Assembly: GCA_050290185.1 (NCBI GenBank)
Contig: JBNKHE010000003.1
Span: 1-64,000, forward strand
DNA length: 64,000 nt
Source: Pontiella sp.
Lineage (GTDB): Bacteria; Verrucomicrobiota; Kiritimatiellia; Kiritimatiellales; Pontiellaceae
Direction of reading: 5' to 3'
Positions 21,001-27,000 of the stretch are shown here, in pieces (within the stretch, counting starts at the first letter, position 1; each line of letters opens with the position of its first letter). Made by a program: the position numbers.

Positions 21001-24000
21001 TCGCGAGGAAGCGCATTTGCCGGCGATACCTCGGGCGGCATCCAGTGGAGTCTTCGAGACTTCTGGGAGAGTTATCCGTCCACTTTCGAGATCACGGGAA
21101 TGACCACACATACGGCGAGCATGACACTGTGGCTGTGGCCGCCGGACAGTCCTGCCATGGATCTGCGGCATTACGATACCAAGGGACACGGATTGAGCGC
21201 GGCCTATGAGGACTACGAGGAAGGACATTCCACACCCTATGGGGTGGCACGGACGTTCGAAATGACCTTGCGGGCTGAGCCGGCGGTTACTTCGAACGAA
21301 ACCTTCAGCTCGGTCGCCACTTCCGATACGACGCCGGCGCGGTTGATCTGCTCGCCTGAATACTATCATTCCGTTCCCGTGTTTGGGCGCTGGAGCCTTC
21401 CGGACACTTCGACGCCTTCGAAAAAATGGGTGGAGGACCGGCTGGCTATCCTTCTGGATTATCTGAAGGGGGAAATTGAGAACCGCCATTGGTACGGGTT
21501 CTGGGACTACGGCGATGTGATGCACCAGTACGATACGATCCGGCATCAATGGAAATACGACATCGGCGGATTTGCCTGGGCGAATACAGAGCTTGCTCCC
21601 AATCTGTGGCTATGGACGAGTTTTCTGCGCACCGGCGATCCGGACGTTTTCCGCATGGCGGAAGCCATGACCCGCCACACCTCAGAGGTGGACATGTACC
21701 ATTCCGGTCCGATGATGGGGCTGGGATCCCGGCACAACGTGCGCCATTGGGGCGGGGGAGCAAAAGAGGTCCGTATCAGCCAGGCGCTGTTTCATCGTCC
21801 CTACTACTACCTGACGGCCGACGAACGCGTAGGCGATATCATGACGTCGGTGGCCGACAACGAGCAGGCGCTGCTGCGGGTGAATCCCCTGCGCAAGGTG
21901 GCGCCCAAGACCGACTGGCCGACGCAGGCGCGCATCGGACCGGACTGGTTTGCGTTGGCCGGCGACTGGTACACGGCGTGGGAACGCACCGGCGACATCC
22001 ACTACCGCGATAAGATTCTGACGGGCATGAACAGTATTGTGTCGTTGCCGTACCAACTCTTTACAGGACCCTATATGAACTACGATCCGGCGACGGGCAA
22101 ATTCGGTTTGATCAACAACGAAGCCACCGCCGAAGCATCGCACATGGAGTCGATTTTTGGTGGCGCGGAACTAATGTTCGAATTGCATGGCCAGTTGGAT
22201 AATCCGGCGTGGGACCAGGCTTGGCTCGAGTTCTGCGAACGGTATGTCTGGGATGCGGACGAATGGGAGGCGCATGGATTGACGCCGCCGAAAATCGGCG
22301 CCTATCCCGGATGGCATGCCCGCTTGACCGCATTCGCCGCCGAGCAGAAGAACGACCCTTCGATGGGCGTGCGCGCATGGAACGTCTTCCTGTCAGCGGA
22401 CGATCCGGGCGGCTATCCGGCGGTGCCCATGGAATACGGCGGACCGGCGACTCTCAATCCAGGGCGGCAAATGGGGTGGGGATCCATCAACCACATGTCC
22501 CAATGGAGCTTGAATGCGATCGAAGTTCTAGAGTTTGCTGGTAAACCCATTCCGGATAATGTATTTAAAAGGTTGGCAAAGTAGGGGTTGTTTACGACCC
22601 AAAGAGGAGAGCAAGACTATGGTGCGTTACTTGGCATGCGGATATCGCGACTTCAAGAAACACCCGGTTCCGGTTGACGAGCGGTTGAACTGGGAAGTCT
22701 ATGTAGTGGCCGATGGGCAAATGGCTCCGGTTTTTCCGGATCGCCCGGATATTCCATTGAAGAGCGAATATGTTTGGGTGATTCCTCCGGGCCTTTCTTA
22801 TGGCTGGAAAAGCGGAAGGAAAGCGCCCAAGCGCTATGTTGTGCATTTGACATCTGTGCCGGACGCCCTCAAGCAGGCGGCCGATGAACGCGGCTATTTC
22901 GGACGGCAAATCACTCCGGCTGAAATCCAGCAGATCGATAAACTCTACCAGCGCTTTAACCAGCACCGCATGTCCTTTTCACCACTCAGTGGATTAAAAG
23001 TCGAAAAAGCGGTCATTGACTTAGCGTTACTTCTACTCAAGGACGTAAAGCTTGTTAGCAAGGTGCCGTTGGATCAGGTGGATGAACAACGGGTGGAATC
23101 GGTACTGGTCTGGTATCGTGAACACATGAACGAGTCGCCGACCATCGATGCCGCAGCCTCGGCGGTTCACATATCGGCCGGGCATCTCCGCAGAATATTC
23201 CAGCGGGCCAGGGGGTGCTCTCCGCACGATGCCTTCATTGCCATGCGTTTGGCCCATGCCAAGGAGCTTCTCAGTTCGACATCCCATGATTTAGTGGAGG
23301 TTGGTCGTCAATGCGGATTTGGAAGTGACAGTGATTTTTGTCGTGTCTTTTCAAAGCATGTGGGCGTGTCTCCTCATAAATGGCGGACCAATATCAATAT
23401 GCAGGAAGCCGGATCTCCATCGGTCGCATGACCACGGTATGTACAGGAATTGGTGACTAACAAGGATTTAGCATGAAACGGATTAACACAAAGCCCCGCA
23501 AGGTTAACAAAGGTGCACCCAGCGGATTGGTGGTCAGCTTGGCAGTACATGCGGTCGCTTTTTTCGTGGCGGGCCTGTTTGTGGTTTTCAAGGTGCTCCC
23601 GGAACCGGAGCCGGATTTCAAGCCGCCGCCACCGGTTGAGCGTCCGAAGATGAAGCTCAAGAAGCCGAAGGTGAAGGTCAAGAAAAGCTCTAATCCAAAG
23701 CCTTCCTCGCGTATCGTGGCCAAGGTGAAGTCCAAGCAGATGCCTGAAATCCAGCTCCCCGACCTGATGGGAACAGGAGACGGTCTGATGGGCGGAACGG
23801 GACTGGGCGGCGAATTTCTGGACCTTCCGGAAATTTCACAGGTGAGCATCATGGGGACCCAGGAAACGGTCGGCAGCGATCTGGTGGGTACGTTTTATGA
23901 CTTCAAGCGCTATCCCAATGGAAAATTCAATGGTGTTTCGGAAGACGATCGGTCGTTCATACCGATCTGGCTGGGTGACGTGAACCAGTTCATCACCCAC

Positions 24001-27000
24001 GGCTTCGATCCGGCGACCCTAAATAATAAATATTACCACTCATCGAAAAAGTTGTATGCCAGTTGCCTGGTGGTCTCACCAACGTGGACCTCGATTGCCC
24101 CGAGTGCGTTCGATACGCCCGACAGCGGCGGAGGTTACTGGATGGTGCACTACAAGGGAAAGCTGGTGAACAAGGACGGGATTACCTTCCGGTTCGTGTG
24201 CCAGGCGGACTATTTCATTGTCATTGCCGTGGATGGCGAGATTGTTTGGGCCGGGGTTTGGAATACCCCGGACCGCTACAATGATTTCATGGATTTGATC
24301 GGCACGAAGTACAACCCCCGTTTCGACACCCGGAGGAAGTTCATTGGCAACGATCGTTGCATGGCGGGCGAATGGATTACCCTGCAGCCCGGGGTGGAAA
24401 AGGATATAGACATCGTCATTGGCGATGAGAACGGGGAGTGTGGCTTTATCATCGCCGTCGAGGAGAAGGACGCGGAATATGAAAAAAATGAGTATGGCGA
24501 ACCGATCTACCCCATCTTCCGGACGGGAGAGCTGTCGCACGACATGTTGGACCAGATCTACAAGGATCTGCCCGTGGGTGAGGTTTGCTGCACGAACGGA
24601 CCGATATTCAATGATTTCTAGTCCAGCACGGAGGACCGATCAATGCGAGAGAATAGAACAGGCACTGGGATGACGGACTCAGTAAAGAGGGTAATGATGT
24701 TTTTAGCCGTTTGTGGATTGTGCTCGGGTGCATTCGCAGGCGAAATGCGGACGTGGCATTTATCTGATGGCAGGACAATAGAGGCGGAGTTTGTACGGAT
24801 CCTGTTCGATAAGCTGGTGCTCAAGGATGCCGAGGGCAAGGAAGTGAATATTCCTAGAGACTCCTTCAAGCTTTCCGATGATGACCTCGAATATCTGGAA
24901 CTGGCGGAAGCTCCCGTACTGGATCTTCTTTTCAGGAAGTCCATCGAGAGGAAAAACTTCTCCAAAATAAAAGGGGCGGAAAATCGTCCGCCGGAACAGG
25001 TCGCGAACTTCGGCGTCAAGGTGGTCCAGAAAAGTACGGGAGAGTACAATCATCCGCTTACCATTGAGTTGTTTGCCATTGGACAGGAGATCAAAGGCGA
25101 CCGATATATTCTTCTCGATCGCATGACCAAGACTTTTACTCTCACCAAGGCGAACAAGCGTTCGGTTGAGGTCTTCAGCAAACGGACCGTTCGCATGACC
25201 GATCTATGGGACGGCAGCGAAAACTATTCGCGGCGGGGTGAGCAGTACTACGGCTTCATTGTCGTGGTCCGGGATAAGCGCGGCAAGCTGATCGCGGTGA
25301 ATGCATCGAACGAGTGGCTGGCGGATCATCTTGAAAATCTGGAAAAGCTAAAGGTCTTCAATTACATGGACGAGACCTGCGTCAGGACCTATCCCTCGCG
25401 GCCAAAGAGCTACGTCGCGAATATTGCAGCAGGTCGTGGCTAACCATGCCTCTTGCCGGTGGGTTGATTAACCACGTCGATAGCCACAAGAAACTTCGTT
25501 CTGGAAACTATCTGGATCAGGAGCACAAGCGCCGTTTCCCCTTCCGTCCGGTATCCTTGCGGAATCTGTCTTTTTAGGCGTTGCTGGAGATGCTCCCGGT
25601 CGTGATTGGATTGTTTTTATGGCGTGGTTTCTGTGTATTTCGAGTCTGAATGCAATTCTTGATCGAGTAAATGTACGGATTTGTATAATTCTGGATTGCC
25701 TCTATTCATCAATAAATATTGCCACTAAACGACCTGCCGATTATCAACTATGGGTTACGCAGATGAATCGATGAGCGTGATTTATGCTGAACGCATCATC
25801 ACTGCATGGGCAAGCTGTTTTGGAGTATTGTTATGAAAAAGAAGAAGGGGTTCTTTCGCAGTCATTCAAAATCGAGTGCCGCTCTGGTTAGTCTCGCAAT
25901 TCACGCCATATTGATCCTGGCAGCCTTTTTCTTTGTGGCCGTGTCAGTCGTCAAAAAAGATGATGTAGATTTCGCGGCGAAGCCGGTGTCCCGGCCCAAA
26001 ATGAATCTGCGAAGGTTGCAGGTTCCCGTAAATACAAAGACGCCGCCGAAGCAGCCAAGACTGCGTAAACAGATCATGGTTAAGCCGATAAACAAGGTGG
26101 CCCCCGATATTAAGATGCCGGAAATCGTTGGCGTAATAGGTGGTTTGGGATCGGCCGGAAGCAGTTTGGGCGGCGGGCCCTCCCTGGGATTCTCCCTTCC
26201 GGAAATCAACTTTTTCGGGGTCAAAGGAACGTCCGAGAAGATTCTTCTGATCCTGAATGGCGATGAGGAAATGTCGTCCGATAATCTTGGCGGGGCCTAT
26301 GGATTTGAAGTGATCAAGAAAGAGTGCCTGAATCTGATTGACGGTTTGCCCTTCTCGGCCGTGTTCAACATCGTTGTTTATGATGGCAGAACTGCAATAC
26401 AGTTGTTCGAGAGTATGGCGCCGGCTTCTGATGGGAATGTGCAGAAAGCCAAGGATTGGTTGATGCCGTTAAACCAGGTGATCGGTGCGAAGACCAAGTA
26501 CGGTTTGGGCACCCTGGGATCTGGCGGGACAAAAGTGGACCGTGACTTCCCGTTTGGAAAATTCAAAGAGGATGTTTTCGAGCCAAGATCCTGGAACGTG
26601 CCGGTGCTGCAAGCCATGAAGCAGCAGGCCGATACCGTTTTTCTGCTGACGAACAGCTGGGGCTCATGGATGTATATCGATCCCGAAGAACAAAAGGCGC
26701 TCCATGAGAAATGGTTTCAAACCGCGGAAGGACAGTTATTCAAGAAAAAAGCGGCAGAAGGGCGAAAGTTGCTTGATGAAGACAACAAGAAGAGAAAGGC
26801 CGCTGGTGAACCACCGAATGCACTCAACCGCAACAGTGATCGCGCCATTGTACGCTACTTTTTCGATGGCGTCGTCGAGCCGCCGAACGCGCCCCATCAG
26901 GATCTGGGCGTAAAGGACTTCATTAAAGCGTTTAAAGCAGCGTACAAAGCCTATTCCAAAGATGCGCCTAAGCTGGGGATTAAGAAAAAGAAATCCAAGT

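Follow-up and report, generated by a model that had tools for sequence, protein, structure and literature searches.

An anchored PA14-fold protein and its SHD1 partner in Pontiella: probably two chains of a conserved four-module protein with a TonB-like transmembrane motif

The window, a 64,000-nucleotide stretch of a Pontiella sp. contig, encodes a membrane-anchored protein followed directly by a secreted protein that opens with an SHD1 domain, a module known from yeast Sla1. The initial annotation read SHD1 as a docking tag that hangs a changing set of secreted proteins on the anchored partner. Is SHD1 what joins these two proteins, and what does the anchored protein do? Open reading frames were called across the genome with a simple caller, not a gene predictor (22,663 ORFs of at least 50 aa). 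All evidence for the system is computational. The features of the locus are as follows.

22535-23431: AraC-type regulator gene, 41 nt upstream of the anchor gene
23473-24621, + strand: anchor ORF, 382 aa (own ORF set, simple caller)
23473-23847, + strand: ANCH module, residues 1-125 of the 382-aa protein (model helix, alignments)
23848-24618, + strand: PA14-fold domain, residues 126-382 (model, Foldseek)
24619-24642, + strand: inter-gene junction (read off the sequence)
24643-25443, + strand: SHD1 ORF, 266 aa; Pfam SHD1 at residues 34-87
24643-24741, + strand: signal peptide, residues 1-33 of the 266-aa protein (hydrophobic stretch; cut inferred)
24742-24927, + strand: SHD1 domain, residues 34-95 (Pfam PF03983, model superposition)
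24928-25443, + strand: tail A, residues 96-266 (model, family comparison)
25806-27182, + strand: second ANCH-module protein, 458 aa as ORF, with a vWA-like C-terminal part (ANCH match)

The SHD1 domain of the window scores 29.6 bits against PF03983 (cut-off 23.7) and is modelled as a small SH3-like beta barrel. It is homologous to Sla1 SHD1 (2hbp) in both sequence and fold: the profile matches with an E of 5.4e-4, the model superposes with an rmsd of 1.9 Å over 55 columns (29% identity), and both share an R-x-W...G...A-E-F pattern. Unlike the yeast domain, the bacterial one is exported and sits mostly at the mature N-terminus. A jackhmmer search seeded with this domain converged in four rounds on 28 ORFs, the number originally reported. 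SHD1 is N-terminal in 25 of these, always with a hydrophobic stretch right before it, internal in two (around residues 400-470 of two 645-aa proteins) and C-terminal in one, which reproduces the placement given in the initial annotation. Its count of eight Pfam-recognised domains was also recovered (eight of 31 proteins in per-protein scans; a six-frame Pfam search gave 10 matches over the cut-off), as were the four SHD1 genes lying among cassette-type repeats on contigs C15, C16, C63 and C96. The 28 signal peptide-SHD1 proteins are real, and what they have in common is SHD1 only, not an anchor partner. The parts behind SHD1 vary and include tail A, tail B, PA14, a C39-like peptidase and a tannase-like esterase. 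Shared tails had been described as one 11-member family; the sharing is confirmed, the single family is not, as there are 12 ORFs with tail B, eight with tail A and eight singletons. Tails A and B are unrelated (hhalign probability 0.2%). Tail A is an Ig-like beta sandwich (block-mean pLDDT 88-98 from residue 91 on) whose structural matches are generic, with Z up to 7.5 to the Ig-like domains of GH2 enzymes; its C-terminal segment carries the conserved R248-x2-P251-x2-P254.

SHD1 genes stand directly beside anchor genes at three places, C3:23473/24643 (the window), C3:158694/159919 and C8:26767/28038, and the two are fused in C1_30537-32474 and C7_46723-48660. These are the three pairs and two fusions noted before, found again in our own ORF set. 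Tail A is present on all five of these anchor-linked SHD1 units. Across 77 related loci it is found on all but two of 81 linked units; in these two SHD1 was detected but tail A was not, perhaps because a contig end truncates them. Because the linked units carry tail A, the fusions tie the anchor to SHD1 and tail A as a unit and not to SHD1 alone.

The fused form is the common one among relatives. The 120 best homologues of the anchor protein fall into two sets. SHD1 is present in every one of the 74 longer proteins (587-661 aa); the other 46 (319-436 aa) are without it and mostly stop at, or a few residues from, the TNGPxFxD motif. In the related genomes, the 90 PA14-bearing ORFs of the 77 loci divide into 57 fused proteins, 24 with an SHD1-tail A gene directly downstream and nine with neither. 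The junction in the window reads as follows. A TAG stop and 21 nt separate the two ORFs, which share a frame; GGAGGA (24631-24636) lies 6 nt before the ATG of the SHD1 gene, and the profile search runs across the junction with the one TAG inside the match. At the matching place fused homologues have an acidic/Pro linker where the 266-aa protein has a signal peptide. In the latter, hydrophobic VMMFLAVCGL immediately precedes SHD1, residues 8-30 are modelled with pLDDT below 50, and cleavage probably occurs after AFAG to leave a mature protein starting EMRTW. What the fusions reveal is a single conserved protein of four modules (anchor, PA14, SHD1, tail A) that is sometimes split, not a universal docking tag.

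The C-terminal domain of the anchor protein, earlier described as PA14-like, does have a PA14 fold. With pLDDT averaged in blocks of ten residues, the model reaches 89 at 121-130, 90-98 over the blocks that follow and 88 for the final two residues. The top Foldseek matches in the PDB are all PA14 domains, led by 6m8m (E 1e-6) and followed by Epa, Flo and MpIBP; RsgI-like PA14 structures 6qe7 and 6qdi are also found. Pfam PA14 has no match on the 382-aa protein itself, and two paralogues pass its cut-off. The domain closes with the conserved motif TNGP[IV]FxD[FYL] and occurs in 13 ORFs of the genome: nine with the anchor module (two of them fused), two of the form signal peptide-SHD1-PA14, and two fragments. 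The window domain has the fold of the PA14 domains of adhesins (Marinomonas MpIBP, Candida Epa, yeast Flo) and RsgI-type sensors (E 1e-6 to 1e-4), yet at only 7-16% sequence identity. It is of lectin type and may bind a glycan. Unlike them, it is tethered to the inner membrane rather than seated on a cell-surface stalk, and it is predicted to hold a protein partner on one face.

That partner is the downstream protein. Models of the complex of the two window proteins gave ipSAE values of 0.85, 0.86 and 0.87, the best of three controls 0.00. In calibration this mark was reached by 116 of 157 solved complexes and two of 215 mismatched pairs, counts only roughly valid here since our own alignments were supplied. 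The runs share at least 35% of contacts, with a partner pLDDT of at least 84. On the PA14 side the predicted interface comprises residues 123, 145-158, 202-220, 290-293, 320-321 and 356-368; on the other it comprises 106-116, 149, 184-199 and 239-264, all in tail A. No residue of SHD1 (34-95) is in the confident interface, although residues not named are uncertain rather than excluded. The best-defined contacts bring D360 (96% conserved), Y363 and L366 against R248 (98%), P251 (100%) and P254 (95%). On average the interface is conserved like the rest of each chain (0.54 against 0.59 for the anchor, 0.54 against 0.52 for the tail). The 74 fused proteins are in both input alignments, and much of the model may therefore mirror how the fused form packs within one chain. 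The two proteins of the window are functionally linked, and the proposed interaction is probably also physical (ipSAE 0.86 against 0.00 for the best control), with tail A the predicted docking surface for PA14.

The explanation we favour, at a probability of roughly one half, is that the window pair makes up, in two chains, a four-module cell-envelope protein of pectin and arabinan loci: a TonB-like periplasmic lectin arm, coupled to ExbBD, in which SHD1 is free for a third ligand. A protein that is a single chain in most relatives would here have been divided behind its PA14 domain, with the downstream chain acquiring its own ribosome-binding site and signal peptide. Once exported, this chain would rejoin the PA14 domain by way of tail A instead of SHD1. 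Probably the N-terminal module links the protein to the proton-driven ExbB-ExbD motor of the inner membrane in the manner of TonB, so that the PA14-SHD1-tail head would act in the periplasm of a pectin/arabinan degrader, most likely holding or moving glycan chains or engaging an outer-membrane partner. SHD1 would be left to grip its ligand, probably a short peptide motif. Both the energy coupling and this role of SHD1 we infer.

A different role for SHD1 is compatible with the rest of this scheme. The domain could serve in general to retain proteins in the envelope, like bacterial SH3b or LysM, by binding some widespread constituent of the cell (peptidoglycan, for instance, or an abundant outer-membrane protein or surface polymer). 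It would thereby hold various exported proteins to the cell, and would have the same task in the anchor protein. Its SH3-like fold and its place as first domain of 25 of the 28 proteins are consistent with this, and on self-contained cassette genes it must work without a co-encoded partner. Of 151 genomes sampled from the phylum, 44 have SHD1, and a published survey names it among domains of extracellular bacterial proteins (PMC5906684). However, SHD1 gene neighbourhoods give no link to cell-wall genes. The ligand of the yeast domain is moreover the endocytic peptide motif NPFxD and not a wall polymer. We regard envelope retention as a tentative and rather unlikely reading. It is also plausible that SHD1 serves generally as an N-terminal targeting module whose partner is another one.

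The N-terminal module of the anchor protein (RPKMKLKKPKVKVKK ... MPEIQLPDL) has a short basic cytoplasmic tail of about 16 residues, one transmembrane helix (17-40 in the model) and an extended segment in which, read off the sequence, a Glu/Pro-rich stretch precedes a Lys/Pro-rich one. The helix carries S22-x3-H26. In alignments of 120 and of 40 sequences S22 is at least 90% conserved; H26 reaches that level in the larger one and never varies in the smaller. The motif is present in 89 of 93 ANCH modules of the related loci, three of the four exceptions being cut at contig ends, and about 20 linker residues are nearly invariant across two families with different heads. The module was found in 395 representative proteins of 1.84 billion (E at most 1e-3), nearly always N-terminal. 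S-x3-H in a transmembrane helix is the functional signature of TonB and TolA. Like these partners of ExbB-ExbD (TolQ-TolR), ANCH combines a short cytoplasmic N-terminus and a single Ser-x3-His helix with a Glu-Pro/Lys-Pro-rich extended periplasmic arm; like tonB, its gene in relatives directly follows exbB-exbD-exbD. Unlike TonB, ANCH proteins are without TonB_C and end in a PA14-SHD1-beta sandwich or vWA-like head. Nor is there profile-level similarity to TonB or TolA: HMMER profiles of the module found neither among PDB sequences, Pfam and NCBIfam searches gave no match for it, and an Atlas look gave no TonB lead, so the case for likeness is made by a short motif, by composition and architecture, and by gene order. 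That the anchor and its Lys/Pro spacer form a conserved module, its transmembrane helix bearing a TonB-like S-x3-H, is a new finding. The membrane anchor of the initial annotation stands, but probably not as a mere anchor, since the module fills the tonB slot in relatives.

This slot is seen at six of 17 tandem ExbD pairs in five chosen genomes (counted by eye from coordinate lists), where, in four of the five, an ANCH gene comes immediately next on the same strand. ANCH-PA14 with SHD1-tail A follows ExbD-ExbD at loci L104, L105 and L109, and ANCH-vWA at L106, L107 and L108. The order TPR-Y-ExbB-ExbD-ExbD-ANCH recurs in five further MAG loci and also in G054 and G138, which belong to another family of this phylum; overall, three families of the order show ANCH directly behind ExbD-ExbD, and so does one from elsewhere in the phylum, f26. 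In the window's genome no ExbB or ExbD gene adjoins any ANCH gene, and two of its TPR-Y-ExbB-ExbD-ExbD clusters lack a tonB-like neighbour. That genome holds eight MotA/ExbB matches against only two clear TonB_C proteins (and one marginal). It encodes three TonB-dependent receptor barrels, against up to about 30 profile matches of the anchor family per genome in the genus, a figure in which free-standing SHD1-tail A matches and fragments are counted too.

ANCH might instead do no more than fix a static periplasmic lectin passively to the inner membrane by way of a stiff spacer, its occasional position after exbD having no bearing on mechanism. Most copies do lie away from ExbBD (an ExbB-like gene is within 2 kb in only four of the 67 ANCH ORFs of related loci with at least 2.5 kb of upstream sequence), as this would predict, and the lack of detectable TonB/TolA homology points the same way. 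Retention of a polar Ser and His in the helix and of the linker residues under two different heads argues against it, as does the recurrence behind ExbD-ExbD in four families, and we consider a purely passive anchor unlikely.

The docking tag of the initial annotation, by which any of the 28 proteins would hang by SHD1 on PA14 anchors in a surface display of the cohesin-dockerin kind, fares worse. It would account for the SHD1 domains right behind signal peptides, the diverse parts that follow, and the fusions and adjacency that join SHD1 chains to the anchor; the two signal peptide-SHD1-PA14 proteins, being without tail A, also leave room for a direct SHD1-PA14 relation. As with cohesin-dockerin, a small module is common to many secreted proteins of one genome. 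Here, though, the common module is not predicted to touch the anchor, and the partner-specific part is tail A, on only eight of the 28 proteins. Almost every linked chain bears this tail and the confident interface leaves SHD1 out, whereas the 12 genes with the unrelated tail B lie in unrelated housekeeping contexts or cassette arrays, none adjoining an anchor or sitting in a glycan locus and some forming single-gene cassettes. A tag docking a changing protein set is thus improbable. Least likely of all is a transmembrane glycan sensor like the clostridial RsgI anti-sigma factors with PA14, signalling to the AraC-type regulator encoded just upstream: the RsgI-like fold matches would fit, but the cytoplasmic part has only some 16 residues and no anti-sigma or other signalling domain, and AraC homologues lie near the unit in a mere four of 77 related loci.

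Carbohydrate loci house most anchor genes. The window pair lies amid genes for PL4, GH43, a PL10-type pectate lyase, a GDSL esterase, PcRGLX and Pel9A, and other copies stand beside GH28, GH43 and a PfkB kinase with KDPG aldolase. The polysaccharide and sugar neighbours listed earlier were likewise seen (GH28/GDSL, several GH43, LamG, an FGGY kinase, PfkB with KDPG aldolase). A TonB-like anchor in such loci may bear on how marine polysaccharide-degrading bacteria handle plant and algal sugars.

The gene at 25806-27182 probably starts at 25833 and matches the ANCH module with an E of 1e-37. Pfam gives no match on the protein itself; its homologues in Pontiella are named VWFA or vWA domain-containing, PF13768 is found in two of 120, and the Atlas lead is to vWA clusters (0.91). 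The ANCH-vWA family also directly follows ExbD-ExbD in G054. It adjoins ANCH-PA14 units, or lies within about 3 kb of them, in five related loci, and in a sixth (L054) it is upstream of a TPR-ExbBD cluster. The protein is probably part of the same system as the window pair.

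The pair belongs to a set of three genes, laid out as follows.

23473-24621, plus strand: anchor protein, 382-aa ORF
24643-25443, plus strand: SHD1 protein, 266-aa ORF, same strand as the anchor gene
25806-27182: third gene, 458 aa, beginning 362 nt after the 266-aa gene

A gene for an AraC-family regulator lies directly upstream of the pair. Around it is a cluster for the breakdown of pectin and rhamnogalacturonan, comprising GH2, a PL4 rhamnogalacturonan lyase, GH43 and pectic acid lyase together with GDSL esterases, a PcRGLX-type lyase, a Pel9A-like lyase, an arabinofuranosidase and a sodium:solute symporter. 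Scanning positions 22400-27400 for promoters and terminators gave no signal exceeding that of shuffles. Just downstream of the three genes are a 933-aa protein of PATR (autotransporter passenger) repeats (28043-30844), in which the beta-barrel domain is absent, and after it a 266-aa PEP-CTERM protein (30984-31784).

By the names that close homologues bear in their sources, the organism belongs to the Pontiellaceae (Kiritimatiellales). The best 120 homologues of the anchor protein fall into two size classes. Seventy-four are 587-661 aa long and every one of these (74/74) contains SHD1; the remaining 46 are 319-436 aa long and none does. The short homologues mostly stop at, or a few residues from, the motif TNGP[IV]FxD[FYL], after which the fused forms continue with an acidic, Pro-rich linker of about 30 residues. 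In the window the motif is followed by a TAG stop, GGAGGA and an ATG, and the second chain has its own signal peptide. Among 90 ORFs bearing the anchor's C-terminal domain in 77 loci of related genomes, 57 are fused to SHD1 and 24 are followed immediately by an SHD1 gene. Nine have no downstream SHD1: three of them reach the end of the locus (L048, L081 and L070), the SHD1 stretch already starting there in L048; in two of the other six the SHD1 gene is upstream in divergent orientation, and the last four are additional copies situated downstream from a split pair or fused gene. By profile search the family is present in 31 of 41 genomes of the order; each of the other 19 genomes from the genus has it, with 3-31 matches. 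The two chains of the window are very probably halves of one protein that re-associate. Degenerate copies also occur in the present genome. A decayed fourth split pair (contig C5, 201632-202787; L014) retains of the PA14 domain only a C-terminal portion, in a 136-aa ORF that closes with the C-terminal motif of the family, and its gene for SHD1 with the tail A described below is disrupted into two reading frames of 93 aa and 170 aa. A 101-aa remnant of the N-terminal module of the anchor (C7, 48827-49132; L017) lies directly behind a fused 645-aa gene.

The structure model of the anchor protein is confident from about residue 121 to 380, with block-mean pLDDT of at least 89. The best structural matches of this C-terminal domain are all PA14 carbohydrate-binding domains, from MpIBP, Epa, Flo and the RsgI-like sensors (E 1e-6 to 1e-4), and 49 structural matches of the PA14-fold domain were obtained at E<=1e-3. 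Pfam PA14 (PF07691) gave no match at E<=0.1 on the window's anchor protein; two paralogues, C1_9973 (28.5 bits) and C10_56137 (27.3 bits), are over its cut-off of 24. The fold is shared with PA14 lectin domains, in which the sugar site is Ca2+-dependent and has two adjacent Asp on the binding loop, and the anchor's domain may likewise bind glycans. RsgI-type PA14 sensors also share the fold, but their cytoplasmic anti-sigma domain is absent here, with only about 16 residues before the anchor's helix. The domain is present in 13 ORFs of our own set. The N-terminal module, hereafter ANCH (anchor residues 1-125), heads nine of these, including two SHD1 fusions; a further two are arranged as signal peptide-SHD1-PA14, and the last two are fragments. 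A four-member ANCH-PA14 subfamily (412-446 aa; sites include C1:249676-250995, C5:151125-153983 and C10:56137-57375) is without an adjoining SHD1 gene of the window's type, has an insertion in PA14 in three members and adjoins GH43/LamG genes or sugar-kinase genes. Copies resembling it are found downstream of split pairs in loci L035, L036 and L094.

In the 266-aa protein, PF03983 (SHD1) scores 29.6 bits at residues 34-87, above its cut-off of 23.7. The structure model (pLDDT 89.7) has at residues 36-88 a small SH3-like beta barrel, which superposes on 2hbp, the SHD1 domain of yeast Sla1, with an rmsd of 1.9 Å over 55 columns at 29% identity (TM 0.66, target-normalised). The profile of the SHD1 family matches 2hbp at E 5.4e-4. 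Sequence as well as fold are shared with Sla1. Yeast SHD1 is a peptide-binding fold and the ligand of the Sla1 domain is NPFxD. Behind SHD1 the model shows an Ig-like beta sandwich (tail A, residues 96-266) whose structural matches are generic only, with Z up to 7.5. A second family of C-terminal parts found behind SHD1, tail B, was considered as a distant relative of tail A and rejected (hhalign probability 0.2%).

We called 22,663 ORFs of at least 50 aa independently and seeded jackhmmer with the window's own SHD1 stretch; the search converged on 28 ORFs, the number given in the initial annotation. The domain is near the N-terminus in 25, internal in two 645-aa proteins and C-terminal in one, again as annotated. 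All 25 N-terminal domains have a hydrophobic, signal-peptide-like stretch just ahead of them. Per-protein Pfam scans likewise return the eight domains above the SHD1 cut-off, and the three adjacent anchor/SHD1 pairs and two fusions recur in our ORF set. This independent recount agrees with the earlier numbers and therefore confirms the observation: the SHD1 expansion is real. In the phylum Pfam SHD1 was found in 44 of 151 sampled genomes and in 0 of 14 control genomes in the same search; one control genome gave a sub-cut-off match in a separate search at a looser threshold. A survey (PMC5906684) names SHD1 as one of the domains that extracellular proteins of bacteria carry. In the literature searched we found no function for bacterial SHD1 and no study of the present protein family. 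Besides tail A, SHD1 heads a C39-like peptidase, a tannase-like esterase, PA14, the TPR-ended tail B and others; the tail-B genes lie in housekeeping contexts or as single cassettes within a very large cassette array. It is plausible that SHD1 acts across these proteins as a general targeting or retention module, although nothing found here makes the PA14 anchor its partner in such a role. The gene-fusion evidence concerns one four-module protein and not a tag for docking in general.

Which part of the 266-aa protein meets the anchor was approached through its linked genes and by complex prediction. Tail A is present in all five anchor-linked SHD1 units of this genome and in all linked units of relatives except two, which have SHD1 without a detected tail A. 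None of the 12 tail-B genes is anchor-linked. Prediction of the complex, run on our own alignments with residues 42-382 of the anchor and the mature partner (33-266), gave ipSAE values of 0.85, 0.86 and 0.87, the best of three controls reaching 0.00. In the tool's calibration, which is only roughly applicable here, the mark was reached by 116 of 157 solved complexes and by 2 of 215 mismatched pairs. Agreement between the runs covers at least 35% of contacts; pLDDT of the partner is 84 or higher. In the predicted interface, tail residues 106-116, 149, 184-199 and 239-264 pack against a single PA14 face that includes helix 356-368. This confident interface names no residue of SHD1; residues that are not named count as uncertain, not as excluded. 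The best contacts are highly conserved (D360, Y363 and L366 of the anchor; R248, P251 and P254 of the tail), and the interface is on average no more conserved than the remainder. Since the 74 fused proteins are common to both alignments, the model may mirror intrachain packing of the fused form; such packing would still be the interface of relevance. It is thus tail A that both the gene fusions and the complex model connect with the anchor, SHD1 being left free, and the annotated role of SHD1 as a docking tag onto the anchor is not borne out. We also considered the NGP[IV]FxD end of PA14, which resembles NPFxD, as a ligand of SHD1. This motif is well ordered in the model (pLDDT 97 and 88). It was dropped, being absent from the confident contacts; the complex model has no predicted contact between SHD1 and this end of PA14, and a strict NGPxFxD-type pattern matched only 2 ORFs.

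ANCH is the most conserved part of the anchor protein. It consists of a single N-terminal membrane helix with S-x3-H, followed by Glu-Pro and then by Lys-Pro-rich sequence. Conserved in the helix are S22, H26, F30, A33 and G34, with S22 and H26 at 90% or more and S-x3-H in 89 of 93 modules; near-invariant in the spacer are R57, P58, K59, M60 and L62, then M90 and P91, then P96. S-x3-H is a functionally meaningful motif of TonB and TolA. The initial annotation described the family as a membrane anchor and spacer with a PA14-like end; the PA14 fold matches uphold the latter. The conservation of the module and its TonB-like layout suggest that ANCH is not a passive anchor. The third-gene protein carries the same module, with a vWA-like C-terminal part. 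The protein itself has no Pfam match, vWA included; PF13768 is found in 2 of 120 of its homologues, relatives bear VWFA in their source names and an Atlas lead for vWA scored 0.91. Among 1.84 billion proteins the module has 395 representatives at E<=1e-3. It is rare, lineage-restricted and strongly expanded in the genus.

Gene order in some relatives places ANCH beside ExbBD. In five MAG loci a family gene comes directly after genes for a TPR protein (~1000 aa), a protein of ~275 aa, MotA/ExbB, ExbD and ExbD, except that in L050 a 242-aa ORF of no assigned family intervenes. In five chosen relatives, 6 of 17 tandem ExbD pairs are directly followed by an ANCH gene, of which three encode ANCH-PA14 with SHD1-tail A and three ANCH-vWA. 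ANCH after ExbD-ExbD also occurs elsewhere in the phylum, in a different family. A search with the vWA-type protein gave no match in three genomes of family f28. This gene order after ExbB-ExbD-ExbD supports a TonB-like reading of ANCH. The Akkermansia mucin utilisation locus MUL1 may be worth comparing, since it may hold a TPR protein together with ExbB/ExbD-like genes; no weight is placed on it as evidence. Passages in PMC13174399, PMC12570417 and PMC12418764 leave the gene content of MUL1 unstated. In the present genome none of the ANCH genes adjoins ExbBD, and two TPR-Y-ExbB-ExbD-ExbD clusters (C7:65140-67402 and C1:202023-203670; Y is the protein encoded between TPR and ExbB) stand without an adjoining tonB-like gene; the genome has 8 MotA/ExbB matches, 2 clear TonB_C proteins and 3 TonB-dependent receptors. 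Of 67 ANCH ORFs in related loci whose upstream sequence is long enough to judge, only 4 have an ExbB-like gene nearby. HMMER profiles of the module against PDB sequences returned 2hbp or noise and did not find TonB or TolA. For the N-terminal module, and for its gene order in some relatives, the closest known systems are TonB and TolA, but TonB's defining TonB_C domain (PF03544) is absent from the window's anchor, the genome's three TonB_C matches lying elsewhere. We consider TonB-like coupling of ANCH to ExbBD reasonably probable. A search of the Atlas for look-alikes of the N-terminal module returned its own protein kind only (score 0.79) and no TonB lead.

Our combined reading, to which we give a probability of about 0.5, is of a split protein with a TonB-like arm and a glycan-locus head carrying a free SHD1. 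The ANCH helix would be placed within the ExbB-ExbD complex and the extended Lys/Pro arm would cross the periplasm. PA14, bearing or fused to the tail A-SHD1 chain, would act near the outer membrane during growth on pectin- or arabinan-type glycans, with SHD1 free to grip a third partner. Of this, the analysis shows the domain identities, how split and fused forms relate, and the synteny; the contact between PA14 and the tail is predicted, and energy coupling, glycan binding and what SHD1 does are inferred. The family, found in pectin and arabinan loci, has an anchor that resembles TonB by gene order in relatives and a head made of a lectin fold and an SH3-like module; it may bear on the uptake of large polysaccharides by PVC-group bacteria such as Pontiella without SusC/SusD-type transporters. 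If the coupling to ExbBD is true, it would widen the known roles of proton-driven TonB/Tol-type motors and provide a testable candidate for glycan capture or import in cultured Pontiella strains. A bolder proposal, which we regard as unlikely, is that Kiritimatiellales swapped the TonB head for lectin-type heads, ExbBD-powered arms capturing polysaccharide chains or pulling them into or through the periplasm. The arms would form a lineage-specific family with PA14-SHD1-Ig or vWA heads and up to ~30 profile matches per genome, and SHD1 would be a 'box-binding' grip on an outer-membrane partner that free signal peptide-SHD1 proteins would use too. Were it true, this would be the missing energised machinery of bacteria with hundreds of glycan-degrading enzymes and almost no TonB-dependent receptors.

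The Y proteins of the ExbBD clusters, 270-350 aa long and encoded between TPR and exbB, have after the signal peptide a small beta-rich stretch faintly like mid-SHD1. A Y protein of ~280 aa was rejected as an SHD1 relative, E values of 0.01-0.9 in an 8-sequence database not being significant. They are located as follows.

L050, 4617-5459: Y protein, related locus
L102, 5168-6106: Y protein, related locus
L048, 3635-4456: Y protein, related locus
L054, 5564-6379: Y protein, related locus
C1, 203725-204591: Y protein, present genome
C7, 64020-65066: Y protein, present genome

An integron-type cassette array occupies window positions 1-5500 and is also found at the ends of C1, C4, C5 and C7 and on about 40 small contigs. 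In the window it has some ten copies of a 90-130-nt repeat between small minus-strand ORFs, with a GC content of 41% against ~55% elsewhere. The repeat contains an imperfect palindrome, GCCTAAC...GTTAGGC, which resembles attC core sites; allowing up to 4 mismatches, the 20-base core was counted 149 times genome-wide. Several signal peptide-SHD1 genes are cassettes between two repeats or lie at an array edge, and SHD1 proteins thus belong to the mobile cassette pool. Those on C15, C16, C63 and C96, annotated as cassette contigs, indeed lie among cassette repeats.

C15, 1111-1881 (L025): cassette-associated SHD1 gene
C16, 1899-3035 (L026): cassette-associated SHD1 gene
C63: cassette-associated SHD1 gene
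C96: cassette-associated SHD1 gene
C1, 9973-10986: cassette-associated SHD1 gene
C4, 257667-258455: cassette-associated SHD1 gene
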